From an uncultured Candidatus Saccharibacteria bacterium (GTDB taxonomy: Bacteria > Patescibacteriota > Minisyncoccia > Phycocordibacterales > UBA918), in the NCBI GenBank assembly GCA_964469295.1, contig CAYXYJ010000001.1:34334-98333 (forward strand): DNA of 64,000 nt, written 5' to 3'. The translations under genes and the position numbers were made by a program. Positions 20,621 to 64,000 of the stretch are shown here, piece after piece. Positions within the stretch are counted from its first letter, which is position 1. Each line of letters opens with the position of its first letter. Under the pieces are notes generated by a model, which saw nothing but the letters and a program-made list of their open reading frames with translations, made no database searches and had not been told where the DNA came from.

Positions 20621-20690
20621 TTGCTTTTCAATTTAATTTTATTCTACCTGTACCCTCATTAAATCATGCAGTATCTTTATGAAGTTTGAT

Positions 20691-22565: not shown

Positions 22566-22575
22566 AACTACTTAC

Positions 22576-22621
22576 TTGTATATTGTATCGGAATATACAC
22601 CAGTTATGCACCAGTTATGCA
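22576..22621 (-). promoter_or_regulatory. operator-like inverted repeat TGTATATT-N7-AATATACA plus tandem 11-mer (ccagttatgca x2) just upstream of the 624-aa gene start
   Basis: Seen directly in the sequence: inverted repeat at 22576..22598 and tandem repeat at 22599..22620. It lies 10-55 nt upstream of the start codon at 22565. Confidence 0.35.
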
Positions 22622-22641
22622 CAACTTTTATTCTTTCATTA

Positions 22642-23856: not shown

Positions 23857-23882
23857 TTACATTATGACACACTGGTTGCGCA

Positions 23883-25205: not shown

Positions 25206-25268
25206 ACGTGTGTATTATGACATACGGTAAGTAACATAAAGGTCTTTTGTATCCCCATTTATCAAGTT

Positions 25269-26750: not shown

Positions 26751-26755
26751 GACAG

Positions 26756-50005: not shown

Positions 50006-50018
50006 TCATGACCGGCGC
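49995..50018. promoter_or_regulatory. GC-rich perfect hairpin (gcgccggtca-ctca-tgaccggcgc) overlapping the annotated GTG start of the giant gene
   Basis: A 10-bp perfect stem with a 4-nt loop, seen directly in the sequence. It lies between the upstream cohesin gene stop (50054) and the first ATG of the giant ORF (49984). Confidence 0.5.
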
Positions 50019-50053
50019 GTTTACCCCGTTAATATGTGGATTCCGAAGTCAAA

Positions 50054-51616
50054 CTACTTCAAAATTGATTTTACGTCATTGATTTCTTTTTCAATCAAGG
50101 TCTCAGATACTTCGAGTGCTTGATTTAATCCTTCGACGGCTTCCTTTTCTTTTTTCGATAATCGCGGTCGTTTGGTAATCAAATTAATTTGGTCATAAAT
50201 TTCATCCCGTAAAGCCGAGAATATTTTTTCCATCTGATCTTGAATTTCTCGAGTTTCGCGGCGCAATTTATCTTCTCGTAATTTATTTTGTTTGCGATCA
50301 TACCAAAGGAAAATGAATTGCAATAAAATGATGGTCAACAATAACGTCGTGACAATATTTCGAGTAGTAAAGTAATCCCAGATGGTTGTTTCTACTACTA
50401 CTTCTACCGGCTTAATCCACCCGGCGGTAATTTGCACAGCCACACTCGCTTCACGCACGTTACCAGCTTTATCATACGCTACTACTTTAACAGTGTACGT
50501 ACCATCTTCTAACTCCTTTAGGAGATATCCGACTTTAGCTTCGTCAGGAGTTACTTTTATTGGCTCATTGTCAGCAATGGTCATTTCGTAGTAATCAATG
50601 CCAGAGGTGACATCCACCGCTTCAAAATTAAGTTGCGGGAATCCAGTTGGTGAATTTGACACCCGAACATCAATGGCAAACTCTTCTGGTGGTGTCGTGT
50701 CAATCATGATTTTTCGATTTAACACAGTCCCCCAACCAACTTGATTTTTAAATTTGATGCTTAGGTATTGTACCCCATCAACGACAGTATCTTTGTTGAT
50801 GGCAAACTCTTCGATTGGTGGGTCATACACTGCATCTTCTGTTTTTTCCGGTTGATTATCAGACGATGTCGCAATCATCACCGCAACCACATTCACGTCA
50901 AATGGCAGCTCCCAAGTAAATAATCCATCGGTAATGTTGTACCACAATTCAGCATCAAGGAAGGCTTGTGATCCGACTTCTGGCGCCCGTGGCGGATCGC
51001 CAAATATAATCGCCTCTCGGTCATCTGTTGGTTCTGATTCCGTTGGAGTTGGCGTTTCTGGTTGTGGCGTTGATGTCGGAGTTGGTGTCGTTGCTGCAGC
51101 TACGGTGAAAGAACCATTGGTGCTCTTTTGATAGACATCCGTTCCCCGACCATCGGCTGCCAGCACCGATGCATTAGCCACCGACACCGCACCAGTTCCC
51201 GCTGCTACCGTACGAAATGTCACACTAACCAAGTTTGATTGCGCGGTAAATGGTGAAGGGCTACCACCGCCAAACGTAATTGTTCCGGCACTATTGGAAA
51301 ATGTTGGTTCGGTTGTCCAGAGAGAAAATACCGATCCAGTTTTACTGACACTAACTACTGACAATACCGCCGGATCAAATTTTAATGATGCTTCCACCGC
51401 GTTAACGCTGGTGCCACCTGGGTTAACGCGCACGTTAACGGTAAATGTTTGCCCAGGAGTGTAGTTACCAGTGGCTGGCGCCACCAAAAGATCCGCCGCT
51501 GATGCGATGGTCACCCCACAAAATAACAAACCTACAATACACAACGGTACGACTATTCGATAAATGTTATGAAGGATGTCGTGAACAAAATTGAAGAGCA
51601 TAGGAACTAACTGCAT
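50054..51616 (-). CDS. membrane-anchored cohesin-like scaffold protein (paralog of 13936..15669)
   Basis: 520 aa. N-terminal anchor, then ADLLVAPATGNYTPGQTFTVNVRVNPGGTSVNAVEASLKFDPAVLSVVSVSKTGSVFSLWTTEPTFSNSAGTITFGGGSP... A Pro/Thr linker and Ig-like domains follow. A TM (LLLTIILLQFIFLWY) and a coiled-coil charged tail close the protein. Confidence 0.6.
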   Translation of the reverse strand: MQLVPMLFNFVHDILHNIYRIVVPLCIVGLLFCGVTIASAADLLVAPATGNYTPGQTFTVNVRVNPGGTSVNAVEASLKFDPAVLSVVSVSKTGSVFSLWTTEPTFSNSAGTITFGGGSPSPFTAQSNLVSVTFRTVAAGTGAVSVANASVLAADGRGTDVYQKSTNGSFTVAAATTPTPTSTPQPETPTPTESEPTDDREAIIFGDPPRAPEVGSQAFLDAELWYNITDGLFTWELPFDVNVVAVMIATSSDNQPEKTEDAVYDPPIEEFAINKDTVVDGVQYLSIKFKNQVGWGTVLNRKIMIDTTPPEEFAIDVRVSNSPTGFPQLNFEAVDVTSGIDYYEMTIADNEPIKVTPDEAKVGYLLKELEDGTYTVKVVAYDKAGNVREASVAVQITAGWIKPVEVVVETTIWDYFTTRNIVTTLLLTIILLQFIFLWYDRKQNKLREDKLRRETREIQDQMEKIFSALRDEIYDQINLITKRPRLSKKEKEAVEGLNQALEVSETLIEKEINDVKSILK

Positions 51617-51628
51617 ATTATGAATAAA

Positions 51629-52108
51629 TTATTTTACTGGTCGTCGTCTGTCCGGAGTAATTTTTAATCTGACCTTTTCTTTTTCTTCCGGTTTTAATAA
51701 TGGCAATATCAATATCAAAACGCCATTTTTAATTTTGGCTTCAGCTTTTTCAATTTCAACACTTTCAGGCAAAATAATCCGGCGATAAAAATCTCCCCAC
51801 ACGCACTCTTCAGTAAAAAATGCACCCCGTGGCTTTGTTTTTGGAAACACCAAAAATTCTGGACGCACTCGTCGTCCTTCAATTAAAACAATATCAGCAT
51901 CGCCCTCAATAGAGACGTGTACATCGCTCATATCCGCGCCTGCAGCTTGCGCATAAATAACAATTGTTCGTTCAGTTTGAAAAACGTCAACATCAAGCTG
52001 AGCAATTTTATCAACCGCAGTTTCCTCCTCACTTGATTGAAGGGTTTGGTCCGATCGAACACCCTTTCCTTTTAGTCGTTGTAAAAAAGACATATGTACA
52101 CTATTCAT
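51629..52108 (-). CDS. Hsp20/alpha-crystallin family small heat-shock protein
   Basis: 159 aa. The alpha-crystallin domain pattern is ...ERTIVIYAQAAGADMSDVHVSIEGD...ILPESVEIEKAEAKIKNGVLILILPLLKPEE. Confidence 0.7.
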   Translation of the reverse strand: MNSVHMSFLQRLKGKGVRSDQTLQSSEEETAVDKIAQLDVDVFQTERTIVIYAQAAGADMSDVHVSIEGDADIVLIEGRRVRPEFLVFPKTKPRGAFFTEECVWGDFYRRIILPESVEIEKAEAKIKNGVLILILPLLKPEEKEKVRLKITPDRRRPVK

Positions 52109-52272
52109 TTACTATTATATAAGTCGATTTCTGCAAAAATGCATACTTACCCACATTAACCGCTGACAATACCGAAAATGAATGATCCCTATTTTTTCGA
52201 CATACTTCTCTACTTCCTACCAAGCAACGGTATCACGACGCTAATTATGATAGGATAGAACTTTGTTGACAC

Positions 52273-54201
52273 TTACCCTGTCCAGTTAAATAACAAAATC
52301 GAAAAGTCAGTCAGATTAACTTTTCCGTCTCGACTAATGTCAGCTGGAGGTTCTGAGTTACCGCCGGCGGTATTCCACCAATACAACAAAATCGAAAAGT
52401 CAGTCAGATTAACTTTTCCGTCTCGACTCAAATCAGAGGCGCCACCAGCACTGACCGCAGCTTGCCCCACACCATAGAGTGTATACGTTGAAAACGCACT
52501 CGTGCTGCCACCATCAACCACACCTTTGGCACGCACTTTATACGTACCATTTGAAAAGCCACCAGTATCAACCGACACAGACCACGCTCCGTTACTGCCC
52601 GCGGTGGCTGTCAAAACTTTGCGACTGGCAGTGTTTTTATCTTTTTCATTTTCGAGAGTGATGATCGCATTAGGAAACGAGTACCCCGAAATGGTTAATG
52701 GAGCACCAACATCAACCGGATCAGGGGTAACTTTAATCGATGGCGCCAAATTAATATTTGACAATGCAGACGTTCGAGCACCTGCCACACTAAATGAGGT
52801 GCTAAAGGTAGAGGTTTTGACAGCAGCCGCGTCAGTGGCGTAGATACCAAAAGTATATGCTCCGCGCGCGATTTTATCGACGGTAATTTCATAGCCGCCA
52901 TCAACACCGGCGGTTCCTGATTCAGCAATTTTTCCATCTACCAAAACAGTTACTTTGGCGCGCGGGAAAGTCCTACCGGTAATGACCACTTGTCCATCAC
53001 CACTACGATATGGTCCGTCGGTACTTTCAAAACCGCCTCCGCCACCACTGCTGGATCCACCACCGCCTCCACCACCGCCTCCGCCGCCAGACCCACCTGA
53101 GTTATTTGAAGATGATTCATTAGAACTTCCTGATCCACTACTATTACTGCCTCCAGTATTATTACCCGTACCACTACCGGAATTACCAGTGCCTGACCCA
53201 TCGCCGTTATCACTTCCTTCAGAATTCGTTTCTCCAGTTGGACGCGCGTTCACACTAAAGGTAATTAAATAATCGTCAGTGTTAATGTTAAATTCATCGT
53301 CCATACATCGGACGTACACATTGTTTACTGATTCGGGCACCACTGACATAATGGTTGTATGCACGACTAAGCCTGTATTATCGAATCGGTGTGGCATATC
53401 ATTATACAAAACATCCGGCACAAGACTGTACCGACAGATTGAAAACTCGTTGGTTTCTACTGACACCTCGACATTTACGGTTGTCCCGCTCAACTGTCCA
53501 CTCGGTTGACCATTAAACCGATCTGGAGGGATATCTTCTCGCGTATCTGCTGGACCGACGCCAACCTGTTCGATCATAAACACCACAAATCCAGCATCGG
53601 CTATTTCTGTATGAGCCGCATCATATGCCCGGACCATAATGCTGTGACTGCCAACAGTATCACTATTTTGAATCGGCTTAATATCACCAGGTTCAGTGGT
53701 CGTACCCGTTGAGGTACTGTATACATCGTACGGGACCTGAGTTAAATCAGTATGGTTACCAATTTTAAATTCCAATCGACTGCCAGTCGAAATACCAGCC
53801 GATTGATTTAATTGGTAGCGAATCACTCCATCAGGACCTGGTGTGACGGTAACCAAATCGTCGGATAGAGATAACACGGCTCCCACTTCACGCCGCACAC
53901 CATCAACCGACAATTGCACATTTCTCAGACCAGAAAAAAGACTGCTCGTTGAAATACTAAAATCTGCTGGAAAATCTATATCAATGTAGCCCTCGGCAGG
54001 AATATCAGTATTAATAACAAACGATAACGTGTGGTTGGCGTATAAAGACGGGGCTGACGTAGAAACCACATCACGATACTCGGCAATATTCCGAGCGCTA
54101 CTATGGTGAATAAAAAAACCACCAACAACGATAATCGTTGTTACAGCCAACAACAACGCAAACCTCATTGGTGCCATTTTTTTACTCATCATCCGGTACA
54201 T
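52273..54201 (-). CDS. secreted multi-domain protein with long Gly/Ser/Asn linker and C-terminal dockerin
   Basis: 642 aa with a signal peptide. Ig-like domains are followed by the linker NSGSGTGNNTGGSNSSGSGSSNESSSNNSGGSGGGGGGGGGGGSSSGGGGG. The C-terminal dockerin is SDLSRDGKVNLTDFSILLYWW...DISRDGKVNLTDFSILLFNWTG. Confidence 0.6.
   Translation of the reverse strand: MYRMMSKKMAPMRFALLLAVTTIIVVGGFFIHHSSARNIAEYRDVVSTSAPSLYANHTLSFVINTDIPAEGYIDIDFPADFSISTSSLFSGLRNVQLSVDGVRREVGAVLSLSDDLVTVTPGPDGVIRYQLNQSAGISTGSRLEFKIGNHTDLTQVPYDVYSTSTGTTTEPGDIKPIQNSDTVGSHSIMVRAYDAAHTEIADAGFVVFMIEQVGVGPADTREDIPPDRFNGQPSGQLSGTTVNVEVSVETNEFSICRYSLVPDVLYNDMPHRFDNTGLVVHTTIMSVVPESVNNVYVRCMDDEFNINTDDYLITFSVNARPTGETNSEGSDNGDGSGTGNSGSGTGNNTGGSNSSGSGSSNESSSNNSGGSGGGGGGGGGGGSSSGGGGGFESTDGPYRSGDGQVVITGRTFPRAKVTVLVDGKIAESGTAGVDGGYEITVDKIARGAYTFGIYATDAAAVKTSTFSTSFSVAGARTSALSNINLAPSIKVTPDPVDVGAPLTISGYSFPNAIITLENEKDKNTASRKVLTATAGSNGAWSVSVDTGGFSNGTYKVRAKGVVDGGSTSAFSTYTLYGVGQAAVSAGGASDLSRDGKVNLTDFSILLYWWNTAGGNSEPPADISRDGKVNLTDFSILLFNWTG
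52292..52428. repeat. two perfect 44-nt direct repeats (52292..52335 and 52385..52428) encoding the two Ca-binding halves of the dockerin
   Basis: aacaaaatcgaaaagtcagtcagattaacttttccgtctcgact occurs twice with 93-nt spacing, i.e. the two dockerin segments are identical at the DNA level. Confidence 0.75.
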
Positions 54202-54275
54202 ATATATGTATACCTATTGTACCGTGTCATTTACCAAAAATGCACGGTCACCCACAGGCTCATTTTTCGTTTACA

Positions 54276-55268
54276 TTACAGAAAAAGTGCCACAATATAG
54301 AAATACAGCACGAGCGTCAGCACATCTCGTACCACGGTAGCAACCGGACCACTCGTCAGTGCTGGATCGTACCGCAATCTCGTGGCCACAAACGGGATAA
54401 AAAGAGCCACCAACATTGCCGCTACCAAGGTGACGATAATCGCAGTAAAAATAACCGGCACTAGTTCCGGTGTCTGAAACCACCACGTGGTTACCACACT
54501 CATACACAATCCTAATAGCAACGCCAACGAAACAGAAACCACACACTCACGAGCCAGATATGCTTTAAATCGACCAACCGAGCGCAGACTAGGATCAAGC
54601 GCCAACGCCCGAACAAAAATAATTTCCGTTTGCGACCCCACCGCATCCGCCAAATACACCACCAAAGGAATAAAGGCAATGATAAGCACGTGCGCTGCCA
54701 AGGCGGTTTCAAAGCTTTGTACGATTAATGCCGCCACAAACCCACCTAATAATCCTAATAATAACCACGGTAATCTTTTACGGATGTGTAGGAACGGTGA
54801 CCCAGACAATAACGATGATTTTGGATCATCAAATGGTCCAGCTCCCGATAACTGTAAAAGATCATGAATTCGACCATAATGTAAGACATCACGGATGGTT
54901 TCAGACGTCACCACGCCAAGTAAACGATTTGATACTTTATCAATGACAGGCACTGCTTTTAGATTATGGTCGATAGCGGTCAAAGCGACTCGTTCCATCG
55001 ACACGTCTCCTGACACTGACACCAAGGATTTTTTGGCGGCAACGGCGATAATCGTTTGCGCTGAATAGACAAAAATGTCACGAATAGATACCACTCCTAC
55101 TAACGTACGATTACCATCAACGAGATAGACATACGATATACTCGCAAAATCACGCGCATGCTGATGTAATAATGCCAAAACATCTGCCACCGTCGTCTTG
55201 GACGAAACTGCAGGCACATTCTCTACCATACAATCAATGGCTGTTTTTTGTTGGTACCGGGAAGACAT
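54276..55268 (-). CDS. mgtE: MgtE-type magnesium transporter (CBS pair + MgtE TM domain; N-terminal MgtE_N domain absent)
   Basis: 330 aa. A CBS-like pair (AIDCMVENVPAVSSKTTVADVL...; VALTAIDHNLKAVPVIDKVSNRLLGVVTSETI) is followed by five hydrophobic helices with the conserved DAVG/acidic positions of MgtE (AFIPLVVYLADAVGSQTEII). Confidence 0.65.
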   Translation of the reverse strand: MSSRYQQKTAIDCMVENVPAVSSKTTVADVLALLHQHARDFASISYVYLVDGNRTLVGVVSIRDIFVYSAQTIIAVAAKKSLVSVSGDVSMERVALTAIDHNLKAVPVIDKVSNRLLGVVTSETIRDVLHYGRIHDLLQLSGAGPFDDPKSSLLSGSPFLHIRKRLPWLLLGLLGGFVAALIVQSFETALAAHVLIIAFIPLVVYLADAVGSQTEIIFVRALALDPSLRSVGRFKAYLARECVVSVSLALLLGLCMSVVTTWWFQTPELVPVIFTAIIVTLVAAMLVALFIPFVATRLRYDPALTSGPVATVVRDVLTLVLYFYIVALFL

Positions 55269-55323
55269 AGGAACGTATAATTTTTAGTGACAATAATTTC
55301 CAGACTAATAATCAGTATTACTT

Positions 55324-55734
55324 TTACTTTGTAGCAAAACGCTGTTCCCGCGCCCGGAGGTAATCAAGAAAATAATTTAATATAATTAAAATGAGAATAA
55401 TAAATAATAGTGTGGCAATCACAAAAGTTGAACGGTTGACACCGACAGATTCACCACTCGAGAGACCAATTTCTATTTCTCGATCTCTGATTTTTGATTC
55501 TCGTTGCTGTAATTGTTGCTCGTACTCCGTCAAAGCGCTGGTGAGTTGATTCAACTCAGTCGGCGCCACTCCAACGCTCACTCCCACCGAATTAGCAACA
55601 TAATATCCCGCCCGCGATGACAAATCACTGGTCATGGAATTAAGCAATCCACTATCCATCAATAACACAAACGCCAACACTGCTCCGCTAATGCGTAGCA
55701 AGCTATGATAGGTAGTGTTCGAGAGCGATGACAT
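55324..55734 (-). CDS. small membrane protein with coiled-coil segment
   Basis: 136 aa. N-terminal TM AVLAFVLLMDSGLL, a Q/E-rich coiled coil, and a C-terminal TM IATLLFIILILIILNYFL. Confidence 0.4.
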   Translation of the reverse strand: MSSLSNTTYHSLLRISGAVLAFVLLMDSGLLNSMTSDLSSRAGYYVANSVGVSVGVAPTELNQLTSALTEYEQQLQQRESKIRDREIEIGLSSGESVGVNRSTFVIATLLFIILILIILNYFLDYLRAREQRFATK

Positions 55735-55744
55735 GGTGACAAAT

Positions 55745-56836
55745 CTACGAAAATAGCACCAATAATATGAGGAAGAATACAGCAGTGACTGTCATCATAA
55801 CTAAGAACATCATCAAGAAAGGATTCCCGGAATTTTTGCCGCGACGGACAACGCGACGACCAGCCGTCGCTTGGTAATACGCCAACTGGCGTCGCACGTA
55901 CATTTTTGTGGCCACATAGATGATAAGGAACAATACCGCCAAGACACCCAAGGCTGGACCAATAATATTCATCGGCAAAATCCAAAACGTTACGGTACTT
56001 GTCATGGTTTGTTTAGATCCTTCTTCACCATAGACCGCACTCAACACTGCTTCATATCGACCAAATCGTGTATCACTTCCCACCCACTCCAACACGAATT
56101 CTCGTGATGTTCCCGGAAAAACTCCGGCAGCGTCAGTGTTAAATAAGACCGTTCCAACCTTTTGACCAAACATGTTATTTATTTCCAACGGTCCAGTTGG
56201 GCGAATCAACGTACTTCCATTATTTTGAATATGGACGTTAAATTCAACATTTTGTGAACTATAGATATAATTATTGGTTGATAGTTGTCGAATTTCTGCT
56301 TTTTCAATAACGTCACCAGCAACACGCATCACAACAATGTGGGCGACCTCATAACCAACCGCTGCTCCACTTTCGCGAATTTCCGGCGCGTCCACTGACA
56401 CAAAAATTCCGGCAAAGTGACTTCCTGGCGTAGCGTTTGCTGGAGCATTCACCGTATATTGGATAGGCACTTCTTGACCAGCCGGCACAAAAATTGAATC
56501 CGTTGCAATTGTAATCCACTGACTTAATTCAAAACCGGTTGTTTCAATATTCTCGACAGCAAAAATTGGTACATTACCATCACGAACACCGGTAATATCA
56601 CGTTTACTTAAATAAAACGTTTGATCAATATTGCTTTCGTTCCGAACGGTGACAGTATGCGTTTGACTCGTTCCTAATTCAATTGCCTCATCAAGTGTCG
56701 CTGGCTTTAAGGTAATGCCGGCCCCTCCTTGTGCCATAACTATCGTAGCCGGAGACAATAACAATAAAGAAACAAACATTCCCAGGATAACAAGCAACGA
56801 ACGCATAACAAAAGATACATTAATGGTAAACAACAA
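55745..56836 (-). CDS. B-family paralog B4 (DUF916-like surface protein with C-terminal TM anchor)
   Basis: 363 aa. Signal peptide LLVILGMFVSLLLLSPATIVMAQG. The pattern ...LSQWITIATDSIFVPAGQEVPIQYTVNAPANATPGSHFAGIFVSV... is shared with B1-B3. C-terminal TM ALGVLAVLFLIIYVATKMYV is followed by RRQLAYY, then a second hydrophobic segment. Confidence 0.55.
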   Translation of the reverse strand: MLFTINVSFVMRSLLVILGMFVSLLLLSPATIVMAQGGAGITLKPATLDEAIELGTSQTHTVTVRNESNIDQTFYLSKRDITGVRDGNVPIFAVENIETTGFELSQWITIATDSIFVPAGQEVPIQYTVNAPANATPGSHFAGIFVSVDAPEIRESGAAVGYEVAHIVVMRVAGDVIEKAEIRQLSTNNYIYSSQNVEFNVHIQNNGSTLIRPTGPLEINNMFGQKVGTVLFNTDAAGVFPGTSREFVLEWVGSDTRFGRYEAVLSAVYGEEGSKQTMTSTVTFWILPMNIIGPALGVLAVLFLIIYVATKMYVRRQLAYYQATAGRRVVRRGKNSGNPFLMMFLVMMTVTAVFFLILLVLFS

Positions 56837-56879
56837 CAGTATATCACTTGTCTGTCATCATAGATTACTCCTATAAACA

Positions 56880-56916
56880 GGTACACAAAAAGCCCCTAAA
56901 GGGCTTTTTGTGTACC
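56880..56916 (-). terminator. strong rho-independent (bidirectional-type) terminator downstream of A2
   Basis: A perfect 16-bp inverted repeat ggtacacaaaaagccc / gggctttttgtgtacc with a 5-nt loop (ctaaa). A U-run follows the stem on the minus transcript. Confidence 0.7.
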
Positions 56917-56946
56917 TCTAATATTCAATTTTAGAACAGTGAATCT

Positions 56947-58074
56947 TTAGAAGGTTGGTGTTGCGATGTAGGTCAAAATCGTATTGTAGTCATCACCCGC
57001 TTCCTGGAGTGGCGTGATTTGAATTTGATATGCTACATCAGTTTCACCAATATCAACGGTAGTTCCATCTGATGGTCCGGTATGTGAGAACACTTGACGA
57101 GGTGTGGTACTAGCAGCTACGAAGAGTGCTGAACCAAACTCATCACCATTAAGGTTTGAGTCTTCTGAAGTAAGACCCCAGTGACCCCAAGTGTTTTCGT
57201 TAGCAATGTTATTGGTTGGTGTTACCCACGCGGTTGGCGTGTTGGTGTAAGCACCATCAATAAATCCATCAATATCAGCTCCTGTTGATGACTGTAGGTT
57301 TTGATCCTGTTCAACCGTTACTACGAATCCGTTACGAGCGTTCGTGGTGACGTTAAGTCGTTGACCAAGGGTCTTGATTTCACCAGCAGTTAACACACCG
57401 AATGGGATTGCGGTTGGAGTAGTTGAACCAGTGGTACTCGTACCGTTAACCGCTGTTGATGTTGCCAATCCACTTACAGTGAAAGTGAAACTGGTGTTAA
57501 CAATAGCGGTAACATCTACGTTGTCGAGAATTGCCACACGTGTGCGACCGGTATCAACAGTCCCCGCTGTCACGTAGAATTCGTATGAACCCGCAGTTGG
57601 GTTAGTGACACGGTTAGTACCCGTTGTACCGAAAGTAGCATTCGTACCGACTTCGATGACCACTGTTTGTCCAGCAGTTACCACACCTGTACCTGAAGTA
57701 AGCGTGAGCACTTGTCCTGAAACAGCTGCTCCCCAAGTGGCACCAGACTGTGTTGCTGCCAAAGTTTGGTCAACGCCGTTGATACTGAAGTCAACGTCTC
57801 CGAACGCAACTGATCCCAGGTTGAATCCAGCTGGAAATGTGACAGCAATAGTTTGTCCAGCGCTCACACCACCTGACGATGTCGCCATGGTAAAACGAAT
57901 CGTATGATTCGAAAGAGCTGATACATCAGAGTCTGATAATGTGTTGCTTAACACGGTAAGGTTAGCAGCATTAGCGATATTGTAGAATCCAATGGAAGCT
58001 ACCATAACGGCTGCAGCAACGAGCATCGCGACTACTCGGTGCAAAGCTTCAACAGATGTTGAAATTTTTTGCAT
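56947..58074 (-). CDS. A-family secreted surface protein A2 (paralog of A1; C-terminus ...LQEAGDDYNTILTYIATPTF)
   Basis: 375 aa with a signal anchor (VAMLVAAAVMVASIGF). It shares blocks with A1. It has its own terminator and a ~300-nt upstream region. Confidence 0.7.
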   Translation of the reverse strand: MQKISTSVEALHRVVAMLVAAAVMVASIGFYNIANAANLTVLSNTLSDSDVSALSNHTIRFTMATSSGGVSAGQTIAVTFPAGFNLGSVAFGDVDFSINGVDQTLAATQSGATWGAAVSGQVLTLTSGTGVVTAGQTVVIEVGTNATFGTTGTNRVTNPTAGSYEFYVTAGTVDTGRTRVAILDNVDVTAIVNTSFTFTVSGLATSTAVNGTSTTGSTTPTAIPFGVLTAGEIKTLGQRLNVTTNARNGFVVTVEQDQNLQSSTGADIDGFIDGAYTNTPTAWVTPTNNIANENTWGHWGLTSEDSNLNGDEFGSALFVAASTTPRQVFSHTGPSDGTTVDIGETDVAYQIQITPLQEAGDDYNTILTYIATPTF

Positions 58075-58372
58075 GAATATATTATTTTAAATAACTAATT
58101 ATGTAGTCGCAGGCGACTCTGCGGTACAAGCTCGGTTGTGATTATTGTGGAGAGGTATCTATCCATTTTTGTGAAAAACTCAGCCAATGGACATCTACCT
58201 TCACAACCGATCTACCCCTAGTATAAAAAAGTTTCATTCTTCTGTCTCTCACATTCTGTTGATAACTTTATGAGTGACAGCGATTGTACGATACAATGCG
58301 GTTTATTTTCCTCATTTTTTGATTGTAGCAATGACGTTTATACCAAAATCATTTCAAGAACAACTGTCGTTA

Positions 58373-59641
58373 TTACGGTATTGCGGACACTACGGCAATA
58401 TCAGACCACCGTGTCGTGTATGATGGCGACAAAGCGTCTTTTTTGTTTTCCCACAGAGGCTGTTTGGCAAAGGCGCCAATCCGAATCACATCGGTGTGGT
58501 GTTTATCATTAATTTTTTGCAATACCTGATCAATGGCAAAACGCCTTGTAATTGTTGTGTCTCCATAATCATTTTCCCATAAAGCCGGTGTTACATAGTG
58601 CCGCGGAATCAATCCGCCAACTACACACCCAACTTTGCTATAGACAACTCCTGGTTGGTACATAGTATCGATCATCCGCATCGCTAACTTCATTCCCGTC
58701 ATGACATCTCCTAATGGCGTTGTGGGTATTTCGACCATTGCCGTTCCTTGGCGAGCAAAATCACCGTGGCGACTCGTCAATAGTAAAATTCTTATCATAC
58801 CGACCAATAATGATTGCTGTTGTAAATCATTAAAGACATTACGGACATGATGAGCGAGAGCGTCCTTTATGACCGATAAGTCTGTCGTCTTGGTACCAAA
58901 AGATCTCGTTGACATGATACTTTGTGGTAGGACGGATGTTATTGCTATGTCATACATGGAAATTCCTTGCAATTCATATTGCAAGCGGACGCCCACCACT
59001 CCAAACAACGTCTCCACTCGACGCGGTGGTGTATCAACCAAATCACGAACTGTCGTGATACCTGCTCTATGGTACCGTTCTCTTAATTCACGACCGACAC
59101 CCCAAACATCACCAATCGGCGTACTACCATACGTTGCCACAAAATCACCAAGACATATACCAATACCGCCCGTACGCTTGGCTTGGGCATTCACTAATTT
59201 TGCCAGGGTTTTTGTTTGAGCAGCTGCTACTGACACCGGAATACCAACTCGTTGCTCGACGGCATTTTTAATCCGAGATAATTCCGATTGAATAGTGGCG
59301 ACGTCAGTTCCTGTCACTCTAAAAAACGCCTCATCAATTGAATACTGTTCAACGGTCGCACAGAGCGATCGTAATACCGTAAATACCCGGGCTGAGATAT
59401 CCCGGTACAGCGCGAAATTTGAAGAAAAGCAGGTAACACCGTTGTCTTTTATGATGTCCTTTATTTGAAAGTAAGGGACACCCATGGAAATACCCATGTC
59501 CTTTACTTCTTGTGACCGAGCGACCACACACCCATCGTTACTTGACAGAACCAAGACCGGCCGATTCCGCAAATCTGGTCGAAACAGTCGCTCGCATGAC
59601 ACGAAAAAATTATTACAATCGATCAAGCCAACAAGTTCCAT
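58373..59641 (-). CDS. umuC: Y-family translesion DNA polymerase (UmuC/DinB-like)
   Basis: 422 aa. The N-terminus is MELVGLIDCNNFFVSCERLFRPDLRNRPVLVLSSNDGCVVARSQEVK, which is the classic UmuC/ImpB start. The palm motif is ...YSIDEAFF.... Confidence 0.8.
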   Translation of the reverse strand: MELVGLIDCNNFFVSCERLFRPDLRNRPVLVLSSNDGCVVARSQEVKDMGISMGVPYFQIKDIIKDNGVTCFSSNFALYRDISARVFTVLRSLCATVEQYSIDEAFFRVTGTDVATIQSELSRIKNAVEQRVGIPVSVAAAQTKTLAKLVNAQAKRTGGIGICLGDFVATYGSTPIGDVWGVGRELRERYHRAGITTVRDLVDTPPRRVETLFGVVGVRLQYELQGISMYDIAITSVLPQSIMSTRSFGTKTTDLSVIKDALAHHVRNVFNDLQQQSLLVGMIRILLLTSRHGDFARQGTAMVEIPTTPLGDVMTGMKLAMRMIDTMYQPGVVYSKVGCVVGGLIPRHYVTPALWENDYGDTTITRRFAIDQVLQKINDKHHTDVIRIGAFAKQPLWENKKDALSPSYTTRWSDIAVVSAIP

Positions 59642-59650
59642 ATTTCTTTG

Positions 59651-59659
59651 AGTATAACA
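59651..59659 (-). promoter_or_regulatory. candidate extended -10 (TGTTATACT) for umuC
   Basis: The revcomp of 59651..59659 is TGTTATACT. It lies ~20 nt upstream of the umuC start codon inside the 170-nt gap after the NUDIX gene. Confidence 0.3.
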
Positions 59660-59811
59660 GAATGATTTATAGTATCCTCATTATTGCCTGTTTGTAGTAT
59701 CGAAATATCAACTAATCTTTCATCAATACAGATGATGACAAAAAGCGAAACGAACACATGTAAAGACACCGCCCCGTCGAATGTGGAGCGGTGTCAGAAG
59801 TCACCTAAAAG

Positions 59812-60393
59812 TTACTGGTCACCCTTTGATAGCAGTTCGCGCTCAGCATACTGCAACAGTATCCTGTTGTTTTCTGCCTTAAAACCTGGCATGCGCGCGA
59901 GCGCATGATCAATTGGCAAAAATTCAACCACATCGAATTCCTTGTCCGGCGCTTCTGACAGGTCAATGACAACCGTTGGCTTAAGGCGCAGATACCACCA
60001 CTGATGTATCTGACCTTGATAGTATTCCTTCCCCGCTTTCCCCAAGTCTCGAGACTTGGTCGTTTCAAATGTGTAGCAGGTGAGGGCCGGGTATTGGCCG
60101 ATGATATGATAATCAATCGGTCGCAATCCCGTTTCTTCCTGTAGCTCGCGTTTCATTCCCGCCAATGGTATTTCCGGTGTTCTTTTGACCAACCGACCCC
60201 GATCCCGAGTTTCTTGGCAATCAAGTCCACCTTGCTGCAATTGCCAGATGGACGTACCGTCCCGCCGAAAGACAGCTACCTCGTTGCTGTCAGCAGCAAA
60301 AATCACCGTTCCAACACCCATTCGCATTGAAACGATATGAGATGCGGTGGGTTCTTTCTTTTTTTTCATAGCGTTATCCTCTTTACCATTCAT
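59812..60393 (-). CDS. NUDIX hydrolase
   Basis: 193 aa. The Nudix box reads GGLDCQETRDRGRLVKRTPEIPLAGMKRELQEETGL (E-x7-REUxEExGU present). The likely start is the internal MKKKKEPT. Confidence 0.65.
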   Translation of the reverse strand: MNGKEDNAMKKKKEPTASHIVSMRMGVGTVIFAADSNEVAVFRRDGTSIWQLQQGGLDCQETRDRGRLVKRTPEIPLAGMKRELQEETGLRPIDYHIIGQYPALTCYTFETTKSRDLGKAGKEYYQGQIHQWWYLRLKPTVVIDLSEAPDKEFDVVEFLPIDHALARMPGFKAENNRILLQYAERELLSKGDQ

Positions 60394-60442
60394 CTAGACT
60401 GTACAGTACAGGCAAAACACTATTACTGTCAAACGATATATT

Positions 60443-61654
60443 TTATAAATTATTCCACAAGTCCATGTCTTCTTCTCCATCAATCTTAAATAACGCAATC
60501 CCGCGGACTCCGTACTTTTTGACCAAATCCATTTTATCTTCAATCGCCGCCGCGTCACTGTAGGTAATAAATCGCACTGAGACTGTTTGTCCGGTTTTAT
60601 TGGCATACGCCAGGGCTTTCGCTGCTGCTTCCATACCTTTTGGTGTTCCTTTTGGTGTTTTGGTTTTGGCTAGATGCGCATACAATCCATCCGTTGGGAA
60701 ATAACTCATCACCGCTTCCCCGCCAGCACTCCGACCAATTGGTGTCTTGTAGATTTTTTTTGACAGTTCTTTAATGCGTGGAGGATTTAAAGTCGCCACT
60801 CGCGTATACGCTTGGTACCAGTCTGGCGACACCGTTACGTCCCACGCGCGACCATACGTGGCTGTGCCAATCATCACTTTTTCTTTCGAAAAATCTTCGA
60901 GAGCAAGTTTAACCACTTTTTCCACCCATTCGTTATCAGCGACTGGTGCGTATGGCACTCCGGAACGCTTTTTATTCAACGTCAAATCAGCGCGTTGTTG
61001 GTCGTACGTCATCAACTCGATTCGATCGCAATATTCACCAATCGCCTGATAATCGTTCGCATAGCGCAATGGATTGGGAATAGTGGTGTATAAATCTTTC
61101 GCTGGGGTCCGGGCTTCAATGGCACAGGTCAATACTTTGTCACCAAGAGCCTTATTTAAATCACGTAAAAAAATGGAGAAAAAATCCTTTGTCTCGGCAT
61201 TTTTATCTTCGTAATCAATATTCACGCCATCAAATTTTCCGTTTTTTACTAATTTTACAATCGAGGCAATTTGTTCATTTCTTAACTTTTCATTACTAAG
61301 AACCGGATGAATCTGGTCGCCATCAAACCATGCAATCGTGGGAATAATTTCCACTTTGTTCTTGCGGGCGGTTTTAAAGAACGTCTGCCACTGTTTTTCT
61401 GACAAATTAGCTTTGTCAATGATGCTCCCCGCAGCATCCACTTCGTACACAAATGGATAGACCGTATCAAGTTTTTTAATATTTTTGGTAGCACTTTTGA
61501 GGCCCGCGGTATCACTCCACCACGGTATCCATCCGGCGACTTCACCTTCGTACGCAGCCAACGCAGGCGTTGGCGCCAGTATACCAAGCGTGATACCACA
61601 TACCATCATTCCAGCGGTAATAAACTTTTTGGTTGTCTGTGTGTGTGTAATCAT
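60443..61654 (-). CDS. secreted glycoside hydrolase family 18 (chitinase/SleL-like) protein
   Basis: 403 aa with a signal peptide. The GH18 core contains [10 protein letters not shown], a DxxDxDxE motif with Asn at the second Asp position. Upstream GH18-like strands are [12 protein letters not shown]. Confidence 0.6.
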
Positions 61655-61752
61655 ATTCGTAGAGACGAAGCTACCGGGAAATTCTTACGCGCAATATATA
61701 ATATATGTACTGTATCGTACGTGTTTGTTGCTGAAAAGAGGAAATACTTTTA

Positions 61753-62184
61753 TTAAAACTGTCGCACACTGCCAGTAACCGCTCCCCAAATAAAACACTC
61801 TCGGGTATCTGCAACAAAAATCGGCGCATATCCATCTTGTTCCGAACACAACCACATACCAACATGATCAATGCGTAATCGTTTTACTACCAATCCGCCA
61901 TCTACCGCCGCCACGACAATCATACCGGAACGTGGTTCAATACTGCGATCAATCACGAGCACATCACCAGAAAATATCCCAGCACCTTCCATGGAATCCC
62001 CTTCAACTCGAACAAAGAACGTGCTTTCGGGATGCTTGACGAGTAAATCATGAACATTCAGTGACATTTCTACCATATCGTCGCCCGGAGCCGGAAAGCC
62101 CGCTTGGGGAGCGCTTTGATATAACGGTACACTACCAACAACACTTGACCCGGCAGAAGTCCACTTTTTAGTCACTTGAAGCAT
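61753..62184 (-). CDS. umuD: UmuD-like S24 self-cleaving peptidase (LexA C-terminal domain homolog without DNA-binding domain)
   Basis: 143 aa. ...QAGFPAPGDDMVEMSLNVHDLLVKHPESTFFVRVEGDSMEGAGI...GGLVVKRL. It has the Ala-Gly cleavage site, the Ser nucleophile (GDSM) and the Lys base (VVKRL). It aligns with the E. coli UmuD [36 protein letters not shown] region. Confidence 0.75.
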   Translation of the reverse strand: MLQVTKKWTSAGSSVVGSVPLYQSAPQAGFPAPGDDMVEMSLNVHDLLVKHPESTFFVRVEGDSMEGAGIFSGDVLVIDRSIEPRSGMIVVAAVDGGLVVKRLRIDHVGMWLCSEQDGYAPIFVADTRECFIWGAVTGSVRQF

Positions 62185-62197
62185 AGAAGATTACTTT

Positions 62198-63412
62198 TTA
62201 TAAGATAGTGGCGCCACTGGTAACAACCGTATGGATGTAAAAGAGTATCGACATTCCCAACAATAACGCTACTCCATACCACACATGTCGCATCCGTTGT
62301 TCGCGCCACTCAATAAAAATCGAAGTGAGCAATAAACCGACCACGATACTCCCGATACTCACGTATAACCACCACATAAGTTGCTGTGATGAAGTGAGGA
62401 GACCAACAAGACCCGGATTATCTCGAGGGGCGGCTGTCGCCGCCACTGGTATCGGAGCCAAACCACTAGTGGTGGCAATTGTATCGCTTACAATAGCAAT
62501 ACCCTCATCGGTGACCACTGTATCTGCCACCACCAAGCGTTCGGGCACAATCGGATCCAAAGATTCGGACACTAATGTCGTTGAATCCGTCTCATTATGA
62601 GCCACAGCGGGAGTAGCGGTAGCGACTGTTTCTGTTGACGCAACATCTCCTACATCATTGGCCAACTCTATTTCCGCTCCAGCAATTTCTTCTGCCGGTT
62701 CTGACGAAGAAACATCGGTGGTCATGGCAATAGTTTCAGCATTTTTAGGAGCACTATTGGTCGCAACCACAACATCAGTGGCACTCGTTGACTCTAATCC
62801 ATTAGTCAGACGATTAGGTACCAATCCAGTAGCGACTGGTGAGACGTTCCCGGCCGCTGGGGTACCAAATAATTGCACCACAAACACCGTATCATAGCCC
62901 TCGTAGCGACCGCGGGCGGTACCGACGCCAATTTCAGTAAAATTAGCGTTCACAATATTGGCGCGGTGGGTTGGTGATTTCATCCACGCAGTCACCACTT
63001 CATGTGAATCGGAAAAATGCACTGCCAGATTTTCACCAGCATTAGCAAAAACATATCCCGCTTCCTCAAACCAATACCACGGTGACACTCCCGTTGGGCT
63101 GTAATGAGCAAAGTAACTGTTTTGGGCCATATCCTCAGCCTTTAACCGCGCCGCCACATCCAACACCTCATTACGACGTAACTCTGGAAGTGCTTCATCG
63201 GCGCGTTCTTCGTTCGTAAGCGTTACCACGACCGCCGGTAACACGGCACCAACCAACCAATTAGATGATTGCCATAAAATGGCTTGAAGGTTGGCCGCGA
63301 GAAAAGTGAGCAAAATAAGACTGGCCATTCCCATCAGGGCCGCCCGCTGCAATAAGTGCGGCGTGTAGTCATTATCCTGACTCGGAATAAAGGCGTCTTT
63401 TGTCAATTTCAT
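62198..63412 (-). CDS. membrane-anchored CAP/SCP (PR-1-like, YkwD-type) domain protein
   Basis: 404 aa. N-terminal TM and a CAP domain (LTNEERADEALPELRRNEVLDVAARLKAEDMAQNSYFAHYSP...AGENLAVHF...TAWMKSPTHRANIVNANFTEIGVG). A T/A-rich linker and two C-terminal TM helices follow. Its stop is 13 nt before the umuD start. Confidence 0.65.
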   Translation of the reverse strand: MKLTKDAFIPSQDNDYTPHLLQRAALMGMASLILLTFLAANLQAILWQSSNWLVGAVLPAVVVTLTNEERADEALPELRRNEVLDVAARLKAEDMAQNSYFAHYSPTGVSPWYWFEEAGYVFANAGENLAVHFSDSHEVVTAWMKSPTHRANIVNANFTEIGVGTARGRYEGYDTVFVVQLFGTPAAGNVSPVATGLVPNRLTNGLESTSATDVVVATNSAPKNAETIAMTTDVSSSEPAEEIAGAEIELANDVGDVASTETVATATPAVAHNETDSTTLVSESLDPIVPERLVVADTVVTDEGIAIVSDTIATTSGLAPIPVAATAAPRDNPGLVGLLTSSQQLMWWLYVSIGSIVVGLLLTSIFIEWREQRMRHVWYGVALLLGMSILFYIHTVVTSGATIL

Positions 63413-63523
63413 ACGTTATATGTCTACTAGTATAGCATTTTTACGCTCGGACAAATACTAATACGTTCAATAATCGGCAATCAGACCCGCACGTCAATCA
63501 CTATCATGATATACTCCCCTCAT

Positions 63524-64000
63524 ATGAAACGATTTTTATTGTTGGGTAGTATACTATTCGGATTAATAACGAACGCTTCGCTAGTATCGGCCAACACCTT
63601 GCTTGCCAGTCAGGTAATTCCCTTGAGTGACCAACACACTCTCTATGTGTTAACCTTTACCATACACGAAGAAAAATCTCCCTTGATCATTCCGAGTACT
63701 ATTACGCGCCAGAGCGGAACGGCCAGTACCACCGGTGACATTCTCTACAGCCTACGTACACCCGAAGGTCTCCGAGTGAAAAGCGGACTCACCGCCGCTA
63801 TGATTATTCAAGATGCCACAGCCAGCACCAGTGTCACAGGCTTTACTGTCGCTAACCACCCCACTACGTTCAGTTTACTCGTGCTTCACCAACAGCCAGG
63901 ATCAACTTCACGAGCCAATACACTACAAGTGGACCAACTACCGTTTTACTTGACCTCCCCGAACGGATTGCAACGTTTAGAATTCACTCCTCAAGAATTA
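63524..64000 (+). CDS. secreted hypothetical protein, 5' part (continues beyond the window end)
   Basis: ATG at 63524. It translates MKRFLLLGSILFGLITNASLVSANTLLASQVIPLSDQHTLYVLTFTIHEEKSPLIIPSTITRQSGTASTTGDILYSL..., which looks like a signal peptide. No stop occurs before 64000. It is the only plus-strand gene, so the 111-nt gap 63413..63523 is a divergent promoter region. Confidence 0.5.
   Translation, partial: MKRFLLLGSILFGLITNASLVSANTLLASQVIPLSDQHTLYVLTFTIHEEKSPLIIPSTITRQSGTASTTGDILYSLRTPEGLRVKSGLTAAMIIQDATASTSVTGFTVANHPTTFSLLVLHQQPGSTSRANTLQVDQLPFYLTSPNGLQRLEFTPQEL

Follow-up and report, generated by a model that had tools for sequence, protein, structure and literature searches.

Paired surface genes of a Paceibacteria-class CPR bacterium probably encode a divergent Pam-type pilus with membrane-anchored, WxLIP-related chaperones

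The A/B surface-gene modules found in the 64,000-nt stretch of DNA analysed here (the window) probably encode a divergent Pam-type pilus, whose subunits would be joined by donor-strand exchange with the help of chaperones and without an usher. The organism belongs to the CPR class Paceibacteria. Members of the CPR/Patescibacteria are believed to live attached to the cells of a host, through contact molecules of which little is known. A preliminary description of the window had noted a recurring pair of a secreted A protein and a TM-anchored B protein in a genome that looked CPR-like. Both points held: the pair is real, as paralogy (BLASTP) and the A-B adjacency kept in relatives demonstrate, and a CPR genome is borne out by its relatives, MAGs of Paceibacteria, Kaiserbacteria and Nomurabacteria. 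The ORFs were confirmed at the coordinates in Table 1, all on the minus strand, and all components of the A/B modules have signal peptides.

Table 1. Genes and elements of the A/B modules in the window.
Feature	Position	Strand	Basis
B1, B-type chaperone, 553 aa	1874..3535	-	PF06030 23.1 bits; PF13399 LytR_C 25.6 bits
B2, B-type chaperone, 358 aa, His-rich tail	3510..4586	-	BLASTP; place behind giant
Giant secreted protein, 2049 aa, putative large adhesin subunit	4495..10644	-	BLASTP; NF058581 E 5.7e-5
A1, second pilin paralogue (putative), 401 aa	16819..18024	-	BLASTP vs A2; NF058581 E 4.5e-6
B3, 318 aa, a divergent protein of the B type lying 1.57 kb upstream of A1	19595..20551	-	weak similarity to B1/B2
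Conserved 136-aa protein, directly downstream of B4	55324..55734	-	ORF; possible accessory component
B4, membrane-anchored WxLIP/PapD-like chaperone	55745..56836	-	PF06030 24.6 bits; hhalign 97.1%; AF2 pLDDT 84
18-bp stem-loop behind the stop codon of A2, ahead of the chaperone gene; terminator or attenuator	56879..56917	-	sequence and RNA fold
A2, putative major pilin, 375 aa	56947..58074	-	ORF; 52% identical to A1
A2 linker, residues 182-202, ILDNVDVTAIVNTSFTFTVSG	57469..57531	-	alternating hydrophobic residues; candidate donor strand

The A proteins have the layout of a two-domain pilin. A1 and A2 are clearly related (52% identity, E 1e-107, BLASTP within the window), and more than 2283 homologues were found, all from Patescibacteria where named. 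In A2, a signal peptide of about 36 residues (1-36, cleavage after ANA) is followed by an N-terminal beta-sandwich (37-181), a linker strand (182-202) and a Pam-pilin-like C-terminal domain (CTD, 203-375); the domain order and the conserved linker are evident from the sequence. AF2 modelled the N-terminal domain with confidence (pLDDT about 90 over residues 40-181) as a ten-stranded beta-sandwich, and pLDDT was low for the linker and the CTD in the monomer (40-55, with the linker below 50). As had been described, the composition is acidic (pI 4.1) and T, G and A are abundant; V is abundant as well, and A2 has no cysteines. Two sequence motifs had also been pointed out. The C-terminal motif LQEAGDDY.T.LTY(I/V)ATP.F-COOH is invariant or nearly so in 29 family members and is retained in the giant protein. 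The WGHWG motif is likewise invariant or nearly so in these 29 members, but the giant does not have WGHWGL.

The linker of A2 is a candidate donor strand, a role suggested by analogy with the Pam pilins. It lies just N-terminal to the region matched by the Pam_pilin_C model, and V186, V188, A190, V192, T194, F196, F198 and G202 do not vary among 29 sequences. Of the linear segments of A, the linker and the C-terminal 20 residues are the two best conserved, and the same two segments were left unplaced in the AF2 monomer (pLDDT 24-50). Sequence searches with A2, the A-family profile and the CTD-family profile found no match in a PDB set that did not include the PamA/PamB entries 25PZ and 25QA.

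The Pam pilus of Candidatus Mycosynbacter amalyticus comprises the pilins PamA and PamB, the chaperones PamC and PamD, and PamT, PamE and PamR (Troman et al., bioRxiv 10.64898/2026.03.03.709456). According to the same preprint, PamA and PamB consist of a nine-strand beta-sandwich N-terminal domain, a single linker strand and a truncated Ig CTD, with paired cysteines, and PamC and PamD are FimC/PapD-like with a C-terminal TM helix. NCBIfam holds models for Pam families, NF058581 (CPR_Pam_pilin_C, curated cutoff 55 bits) and NF058579. With NF058581, A1 scored 26.8 bits and A2 gave no match at E <= 1; 17 of the 29 A-family members were matched (best E 4e-6), as were the CTD of the giant (23.2 bits, profile positions 3-148 of 148) and 29 of 34 relatives. 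When ten relatives were scanned singly, three had no match and seven scored 19-35 bits, over positions 2 or 3 to 148 of 148, ending exactly at the protein C-terminus, with E-values down to 1.8e-8. This span over the whole profile, together with E-values of that size, identifies these CTDs, at the sequence level, as distant homologues of the Pam pilin C-domain; they are not members by the NCBI criterion, every Pam-model match lying at 19-35 bits. The PamT model was matched by 4 of the 34 relatives (best E 5.9e-11).

The same CTD is found on much larger proteins. Residues 1879-2049 of the giant are 28-32% identical to the C-terminal halves of the A proteins (E about 2e-6, BLASTP), so that its last ~170 aa (4498..5010) form an A-type, Pam-pilin-like CTD, with an LSFTVSG strand before it. 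The giant is a putative large adhesin subunit. Clustering of CTD proteins at 50% identity gave 599 clusters at E <= 0.001. Among the best 150 of these, the CTD was located at the extreme C-terminus of the representatives, apart from a few cut-off matches, and the representatives ranged from about 80 to 5845 aa, the shortest being fragments. Cluster look-up returned no informative names.

BLASTP identifies B1, B2 and B4 as clear paralogues (B1 versus B4, 31% identity, E 4e-43; B2 versus B1 and B4, E about 1e-20) and B3 as a distant one, weakly similar to B1 and B2 (E 1e-4 to 6e-5). Translation of B4 probably begins with the ATG at position 56806, which gives 353 aa, the length of a 100% identical database protein (P0121). 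Its ORF encodes a signal peptide, two Ig-like beta-sandwiches (about residues 40-286), a TM helix (289-324), a basic loop and a hydrophobic helix (339-362). The single C-terminal TM helix proposed earlier for all B proteins needs correction in two of them: B4 has two C-terminal hydrophobic helices, and B1 carries further membrane-spanning segments as well as a LytR_C domain at its C-terminus (PF13399, 25.6 bits, above the gathering threshold). B3 has a signal peptide, an ectodomain of ~250 aa with matches to Ig-like-domain Pfam families, a TM segment and an RRSRRSRQK tail; it may be either a chaperone or a PamR-like anchor. Neither B3 alone nor B1 alone gave a meaningful match to PDB sequences.

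Profile, hhalign and fold matches agree that the B proteins are homologues of the DUF916/DUF3324-TM proteins (WxLIP, CscA-type), as the preliminary description had suggested. B4 (24.6 bits) and B1 (23.1 bits) are individually below the PF06030 gathering threshold of 27.3 bits; at E <= 0.01, PF06030 was matched by 27 of 28 B-family members (best E 1.4e-8), and many database orthologues carry it. The B family thus has the N-terminal DUF916 / WxLIP_PGBD domain (PF06030) by which a WxLIP is recognised. The PDB sequence of EfmWxLIP1 from E. faecium was found with E 5e-4 by B4 as a single sequence and with 7.6e-8 by the B-family profile, and in hhalign B and the Firmicute WxLIPs aligned along 273 columns, signal peptide through TM helix, at E 6e-11 and a probability of 97.1%. 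PF11797 (DUF3324) did not match B; the phmmer and hhalign alignments still cross the second domain and the TM helix. In the literature searched, no paper joined DUF916 with Patescibacteria, and none described the 9i25 structure. Some Patescibacteria homologues are already labelled 'DUF916 domain-containing protein' by NCBI.

The predicted fold of B4 (AF2, pLDDT 84) consists of two beta-sandwiches and a TM helix. In Foldseek its best matches were the WxLIP structures 9i1y and 9i25 (3e-12, 261-266 columns aligned), followed by the chaperone-usher chaperones CfaA, CsuC, YadV, FimC and Caf1M (1e-10 to 3e-7). RbmA, CEP192 and transglutaminase, which are Ig-like two-domain proteins, also scored. In fold and architecture, B4 is an adjacent two-domain FimC/PapD-like chaperone with a C-terminal TM helix, as expected of a Pam system; the likeness of B to PamC and PamD is one of modelled fold and architecture only.

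Homology to WxLIP raises the question of whether the modules are WxL-type complexes. The WxL or csc clusters of Lactobacillales, Listeria and Bacillus combine WxL proteins with a WxLIP of DUF916-DUF3324-TM layout (Siezen 2006, PMC1534035; PMC10599100; PDB 9i1y, 9i25), and a WxLIP strand was predicted by AlphaFold2 to complete the WxL sandwich (PMC10599100). By this reading, A would end in a strongly diverged WxL domain with non-covalent binding to peptidoglycan, B would complete and stabilise this domain on the wall, and the result would be a short, non-filamentous platform displaying the N-terminal domains of A and the giant. The significant homology of B to WxLIP, including length, domain order and TM anchor, is in its favour, as are the partner gene immediately upstream of B, in the WxL-then-WxLIP order of Firmicute clusters, the small and large multidomain partners with a common CTD, which mirror small and large WxL proteins, and the predicted strand donation. 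Three motif likenesses are colinear (FG; V.VT[DT]N..G[WF].[LV].V.Q; Y.T.LT[WY].[LA]..P), and genuine WxL-cluster proteins with Y in place of the distal W exist, for example a B. cereus protein ending YESKLTYSIVTGP.

We nevertheless consider a WxL-type wall complex unlikely, and the earlier suggestion of a WxL-like A CTD was not upheld. Scanned with PF13731, A1, A2, the giant and 34 relatives all remained without a match at E <= 1, and when hhalign compared the A CTD with aligned WxL domains from seven Firmicute plasmid clusters, the probabilities were 1.6% and 0.8%. What matched instead was the Pam pilin C-domain model, which in turn found no match among the Firmicute WxL proteins searched against NCBIfam. 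The CTD-family profiles had no sequence match to the 'long WxL' chain of 9i25. Two Trp-x-Leu motifs, as in a WxL domain (PF13731), were not found in A, which shows likeness at the level of motifs only (W299-G-L301 and the distal Y...LTY.A.P), and A has in addition the conserved N-terminal domain and linker strand typical of Pam pilins. Hassan et al. 2023 (PMC10599100) define a WxL cluster by one or more WxLIP genes and two or more WxL genes, lying within four genes of each other; no gene with a WxL domain was detected here, the A2/B4 module having one partner and the giant module one partner and two B genes. Unlike WxL/csc loci, the window also showed no LPXTG CscD-like gene and no sortase, and the taxon lies outside Bacillota.

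The comparison with chaperone-usher pili (Pap, Fim, CFA/I, Csu, Caf1) is limited to the fold. B4 shares the two-domain boomerang fold of their chaperones, the conserved C-terminal strand of A ends at the C-terminus as in their subunits, and donor-strand complementation and exchange are proposed here as well. The differences are that the organism has no outer membrane, that no usher was found, that the B chaperone is membrane-tethered and not soluble, and that the A pilin has two domains, with a proposed internal donor strand instead of an N-terminal extension. Pfam gave neither PapD_N/C nor fimbrial matches. Neither an usher nor a PapD match to Pfam was present in 27 window proteins (the 7749-aa ORF was covered by its last 400 residues, against NCBIfam), and the other proteins of the window included no sortase or usher.

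A-B pairing is conserved far beyond chance. The GTDB set consisted of 80 loci, all from MAGs, of which 75 were informative for gene order; in 61 of the 75, A was directly followed by B. Those of the 80 loci that had a taxonomic label were of the Patescibacteria group, several others being labelled just 'bacterium', and the named database protein matches were Patescibacteria as well. A B3-type gene was located 0.8-4 kb upstream of A (A1-type pilins) in 11 of the 75 loci. The order giant, B2-like, B1-like was seen in all six metagenome loci yielded by a single-protein scan of metagenome contigs, and likewise in two genomes (L042 and L057), where a contiguous array giant-B2-B1-A-A-B is present. 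In a distant locus (L097), a pilin is followed by a B-type gene and then a second CTD protein.

This linkage also bears on a third reading, in which A would be an adhesin or S-layer-like coat protein and B an independent membrane-anchored Ig adhesin, co-transcribed with A and not complementing it by a strand. Such unrelated Ig-fold proteins would fit the Foldseek scores of RbmA and the other two-domain Ig-like proteins, and the sub-threshold Pam and DUF916 scores of the window's own proteins. We regard this as very improbable, as the adjacency is tight across very divergent lineages and involves three different CTD-bearing partners, the hhalign match of B to WxLIP is full-length, colinear and inclusive of the TM helix, the Pam C-domain matches are consistent and run end to end, and the conserved linker and C-terminus of A are unplaced in the monomer model.

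The genes of the A2/B4 module are separated by a hairpin. The terminator reported earlier after A2 corresponds to a stem-loop with a perfect 18-bp stem and a U-rich 3' arm; a 97-nt segment containing it folds at -35.6 kcal/mol (z = -5.66), and a consensus terminator scan did not flag it. The 136-aa protein encoded next to B4 is possibly an accessory component. Its middle is rich in Gln, Glu and Arg, a hydrophobic stretch lies close to either end, and no family match was obtained. In two related loci (L002 and L003) the corresponding place is taken by a gene of 143 aa, and in L097 a gene of 274 aa, coding for a protein with a hydrophobic stretch at its N-terminus, lies between pilin and chaperone.

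Together, these observations are best accommodated by a Pam-type pilus, which we judge the most probable of the three readings. A1 and A2 would be exported by Sec, each with an N-terminal Ig-like beta-sandwich, a conserved linker strand of alternating hydrophobic residues and an incomplete Ig-like CTD. B1-B4, as PapD-like two-domain proteins of the WxLIP family (DUF916/DUF3324) tethered to the cytoplasmic membrane through their C-terminal helix, would cap the open pilin domain after export by donating a strand and then pass the subunit to the growing fibre. There, the linker strand of one subunit would complete the CTD of its neighbour, giving a thin linear filament. The giant, with the same CTD behind ~1870 adhesin-like residues, may be built in as a tip or decorating adhesin, and the hairpin after A2 would let pilin be produced in large excess over chaperone. 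The analysis supports the homologies, the order of the domains, the fold of the chaperone, its membrane anchor and the conserved linkage of the genes; strand exchange, the filament and the parts played by the giant, B3 and the 136-aa protein are proposals.

The system shares with Pam its restriction to CPR and its Sec-exported two-domain pilins, with beta-sandwich N-terminal domain, conserved linker and a C-terminal domain that may be Ig-like, the last fitting Pam_pilin_C end to end. Further likenesses are that each genome has several paralogues of both pilin and chaperone, that a PapD-like two-domain chaperone with a C-terminal TM helix is encoded next door, that neither usher nor sortase was found, and that a gene for a CBS-domain Mg2+ transporter lies nearby (MgtE here, CorB-like in Pam). 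It differs from Pam in scores under the NCBIfam cutoff (19-35 versus 55 bits) and in a Paceibacteria/Kaiserbacteria-like host, the prevalence of pam being highest in Saccharimonadia and Microgenomatia (bioRxiv 10.64898/2026.03.03.709456). The modules lie at three places in the window (contiguous in L042 and L057), and the CTD is carried by giants reaching 5845 aa, in place of or besides a small PamT tip. A2 is free of cysteines, which are paired in PamA and PamB. ATP-synthase genes, in whose neighbourhood pam operons occur according to the preprint, were not seen in this window, and, scanned with NCBIfam, other proteins of the window showed no additional part of the Pam system, for instance PamR or PamE.

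The modules had been suggested to be a previously undescribed system. This no longer holds, since CPR pilins with TM-anchored PapD-like chaperones were published in 2026 (Troman et al.). The occurrence in Paceibacteria, the fusion of the CTD to giant proteins and the sequence link between the chaperones and WxLIP are absent from that preprint, which mentions neither WxL nor DUF916 (bioRxiv 10.64898/2026.03.03.709456).

More tentatively, B can be read as a sequence bridge that would place the Firmicute WxL/WxLIP clusters and the CPR Pam pili in one ancient superfamily, in which single-membrane bacteria assemble fibres by donor strands with membrane-anchored chaperones and no usher. WxLIP would then possibly be a pilus-type chaperone and not a peptidoglycan or host binder, WxL domains might be pilin-like acceptors, and the CTD, which hundreds of giant CPR surface proteins carry, could be a universal handle for mounting the host-binding adhesins of CPR cells on such fibres.

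If the pilus interpretation is true, Pam-type pili would reach the very large class Paceibacteria, given the number of A homologues and the 599 CTD clusters, and many giant CPR surface proteins would gain an attachment mechanism through a common pilin-like CTD. Annotation pipelines would have reason to adopt lower thresholds or new models for the A and B families. A significant similarity in sequence would also tie the pilus system to WxLIP proteins from enterococci, listeriae and lactobacilli, a link which suggests that medically relevant WxL loci may use chaperone-like strand complementation.

The components of the A/B modules (see table) are related to one another within the window. By BLASTP among window proteins, the secreted A1 and A2 share 52% identity (E 1e-107), and the last ~170 residues of the 2049-aa giant align with their C-terminal halves at 28-32% identity (E ~2e-6). 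Among the membrane-anchored B proteins, B1 and B4 are 31% identical (E 4e-43), B2 matches both at E ~1e-20, and B3 is weakly similar (E 1e-4 to 6e-5). All A, B and giant components have signal peptides. Every gene-like ORF of at least 150 aa in the 64-kb window is on the minus strand, and GC skew is negative in 32 of 32 two-kb windows (cumulative -2.8, 1..64000); strand bias and skew would fit a single replichore whose genes are strongly co-oriented.

Genes of the A/B modules and of neighbouring surface systems
Feature	Position	Strand	Remark
B1	1874..3535	-	residues 463-548 LytR_C (PF13399), 25.6 bits, above gathering threshold
2049-aa giant	4495..10644	-	A-type C-terminal domain (CTD) at C-terminus
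Cohesin-type/dockerin-type	12514..13251	-	cohesin-type by BLASTP likeness to the PF00963 proteins alone; secreted, dockerin match at C-terminus below gathering score
Cohesin (PF00963)	13936..15669	-	C-terminal hydrophobic stretch
Cohesin-type	15666..16694	-	by BLASTP likeness to the PF00963 proteins alone
A1	16819..18024	-	A2 paralogue
Dockerin type I repeats	18469..19593	-	Pfam, at C-terminus; secreted
624-aa protein	20691..22565	-	
MacB-type ABC exporter	22642..25205	-	MacB_PCD/FtsX permease and ATPase with ~200-aa C-terminal extension
7749-aa ORF	26756..50005	-	
Cohesin (PF00963)	50054..51616	-	C-terminal hydrophobic stretch
Dockerin type I repeats	52273..54201	-	642 aa; Pfam, at C-terminus; secreted
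CBS-MgtE divalent-cation transporter	54276..55268	-	after B4
Conserved 136-aa gene	55324..55734	-	after B4; product hydrophobic near both ends
B4	55745..56836	-	ORF call; start most likely ATG at 56806 (353 aa, as in identical database protein P0121)
Hairpin	56879..56917		perfect, 18 bp, 3' of A2 stop codon
A2	56947..58074	-	375 aa

The pairing of A and B is real, conserved and widespread, and exceeds chance. An A profile retrieved 80 loci from GTDB species representatives, all metagenome-assembled genomes, mostly labelled as Patescibacteria group (Kaiserbacteria, Nomurabacteria, Parcubacteria, Paceibacteria) and some merely as 'bacterium' or 'uncultured bacterium'. Among the 75 with enough flanking DNA, a B-type gene lies immediately 3' of the A gene in 61, bearing out the adjacency that the preliminary description had claimed, and 11 are arranged like A1 in having a B3-type gene 0.8-4 kb upstream of A. 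B2-like and then B1-like genes directly follow the giant-CTD orthologue in six of six metagenome loci. Two other Patescibacteria genomes carry giant, B2, B1, A, A and B as one uninterrupted array (L042, 3..9686; L057, 2..9710), with two A pilins in tandem and a B4-like last gene; the three modules of the window therefore belong to one system. In the much more distant locus L097, the gene order runs from a pilin-like protein through a 274-aa product, hydrophobic in an N-terminal stretch, and a B-type protein to a second protein with the same CTD. Set beside this recurrent linkage, we consider it very unlikely that A and B are unrelated Ig-fold surface proteins, merely co-transcribed.

The B proteins are relatives of Firmicute WxLIPs (DUF916/DUF3324-TM partners of WxL proteins). 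This reading, already put forward as CscA-type kinship, is supported by Pfam, profile, hhalign and fold evidence alike. PF06030 (WxLIP_PGBD, formerly DUF916) falls just under its 27.3-bit threshold for B4 (24.6) and B1 (23.1), is matched at E <= 0.01 by 27 of 28 family members, and is annotated on many database orthologues, one of them named 'DUF916 domain-containing protein [Patescibacteria group bacterium]'. The single B4 sequence matches E. faecium WxLIP structures 9i25_C and 9i1y_A across both domains (E 5e-4), the family profile reaches E 7.6e-8 with an E. faecium WxLIP structure, and hhalign aligned 273 columns colinearly with seven WxLIPs from plasmid-borne Firmicute WxL clusters, signal peptide through TM helix, at a probability of 97.1% (E 6e-11). 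The AF2 model of B4 (pLDDT 84) has two beta-sandwich domains and then a long TM helix as membrane anchor. Its closest PDB folds are WxLIP (3e-12), followed by the periplasmic chaperones CfaA, CsuC, YadV, FimC, Caf1M, CupB2, DraB of chaperone-usher pili (1e-10 to 3e-7), and RbmA is also among the matches; B4 is modelled with the fold of a pilus chaperone. Of the layout first described, the signal peptide and, in the B4 model, the paired beta-sandwiches stand; a single C-terminal TM helix does not hold for B4, which has two C-terminal hydrophobic helices, or for B1, which has extra TM segments. In B1, a WxLIP-like ectodomain is followed by two further hydrophobic segments and then LytR_C, and B1-like proteins of ~546-577 aa are kept downstream of B2-like genes at all giant loci.

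The A proteins consist of two domains and a linker; they are acidic (pI 4.1), and T, G, A and V are abundant. Across 29 family members, little or no variation is seen in the C-terminus L-Q-E-A-G-D-D-Y-x-T-x-L-T-Y-I-A-T-P-x-F and the block E-x-T-W-G-H-W-G, in agreement with the composition and motifs noted earlier, and V-A-I-x-D-N-V-x-V-T-A-I-V-N-T-S-F-x-F-T-V-x-G between the halves is equally conserved. The proposed WxL-like nature of the C-terminus found no such backing: PF13731 (WxL) had no match at E <= 1 in A1, A2, the giant or 34 relatives, and hhalign of the CTD against a 12-sequence WxL-domain alignment gave a non-significant 1.6% (small query alignment) or 0.8% (148-sequence query). 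Despite this, three motifs are paired in a colinear greedy alignment (FG; TNA..G[YF].V with R...GW.L; QPAG.Y.T.I.YI..P with Y...LTW.L...P). Tyr replaces Trp at the distal position in some WxL-cluster proteins (B. cereus ...YESKLTYSIVTGP; L. plantarum ...GTIDYNIS). Pfam gave no family at meaningful E for A1, A2 or the giant. The sole consistent family signal is NCBIfam NF058581 ('CPR_Pam_pilin_C'), matched by A1 (4.5e-6), 17 of 29 A-family members, the giant CTD (profile positions 3-148 of 148) and 29 of 34 relatives, always under the curated cutoff (19-35 versus 55 bits); in seven individually checked relatives the match spans the whole profile and stops at the last residue of the protein. Four relatives match the PamT model (best 5.9e-11), and an NCBIfam scan of Firmicute WxL proteins found neither model. 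By profile comparison, the A and giant CTD distantly but consistently resembles the Pam pilin C-domain.

Pam pili were solved as thin filaments of Ca. Mycosynbacter amalyticus, a parasitic member of the Saccharimonadia, in a preprint of 2026 (Troman et al., 10.64898/2026.03.03.709456) that mentions neither WxL, DUF916 nor Paceibacteria. The pilins PamA and PamB have a nine-strand beta-sandwich N-terminal domain (NTD), joined by one linker strand to a truncated Ig-like CTD, which receives the neighbouring subunit's linker in the filament. PamC and PamD are FimC/PapD-like chaperones with, unlike Gram-negative ones, a C-terminal TM helix; AlphaFold models predict their donor-strand complementation of pilins, no usher or envelope-spanning machine is required, and pam operons have a conserved gene for a CorB-like transporter with a CBS domain beside them (10.64898/2026.03.03.709456). 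In domain order, conserved linker, predicted chaperone fold and gene neighbourhood, the window pairs match this architecture feature by feature; B4 too is followed, two genes downstream, by a CBS-MgtE gene, in an order kept with the 136-aa gene in related loci L002 and L003.

The A/B modules are probably a divergent, chaperone-assisted pilus of the Pam type. By analogy, B would cap the open A CTD by donor-strand complementation after Sec export, and the next subunit's conserved linker would displace the chaperone strand, yielding a linear fibre. The giant would be a tip or decorating adhesin, and B3 or B1 a membrane anchor or terminator, as proposed for PamR. Where a terminator had been claimed between A2 and B4, a strong hairpin follows the A2 stop (97-nt segment, -35.6 kcal/mol, z = -5.7), which may set a high pilin-to-chaperone ratio. 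AlphaFold2 likewise predicts WxLIP-WxL strand complementation, and a non-filamentous wall complex of the WxL type would suit the B-side homology; given the Pam-like A CTD, it seems to us rather unlikely.

A second system for surface assembly, of the cohesin/dockerin type, is encoded between the pilus modules, all on the minus strand, and its arrangement is conserved in L002. The 642-aa dockerin protein starts with an A-type NTD (residues 14-200, including the S.SAPS..ANHT..F strand) without an A-type CTD, so the pilin NTD may also be displayed by the cohesin-dockerin route; in ~26 loci a weak A-HMM match marks its orthologue, 3-5 kb downstream of the A2 orthologue. The 7749-aa ORF and the 624-aa protein form a second small/large pair with a common C-terminal domain (last ~250 residues, 32% identity, E 6e-18), distinct from the A-type CTD. 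NCBIfam gave no family for the 624-aa protein or for the last 400 residues of the 7749-aa ORF, nor Pfam for the 624-aa protein; the 7749-aa ORF has internal repeats in common with the 2049-aa giant. The MacB-type exporter gene lies between surface-protein genes.

The kind of system is known from Pam pili in CPR and from WxL/WxLIP clusters in Firmicutes; the description as previously undescribed therefore falls. Clusters on Firmicute plasmids (L084, L085, L086, L087, L089) have an LPXTG protein, one to three WxL copies and a WxLIP, in this order, directly followed in L084 and L089 by a class A sortase. What appears new is a divergent Paceibacteria branch under current NCBIfam cutoffs, pilin-type CTDs fused to giant proteins, contiguous giant-B-B-A-A-B arrays, and statistically significant sequence homology of CPR chaperone-like proteins to Firmicute WxLIPs. 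This B-side homology hints at kinship between the WxL and Pam systems, any link between A CTD and WxL being hypothetical.

Searching the giant's 189-residue C-terminus against 1.84 billion cluster representatives found 599 clusters with this CTD (E <= 0.001). In the best 150, it lies at the extreme C-terminus of proteins of ~180 to 5845 residues, except where a few matches stop short of the protein end; shorter entries are fragments. Firmicute WxL proteins also come small and large (PMC10599100). This pattern suggests the A-type CTD as a common means by which CPR cells mount a wide variety of large adhesins.
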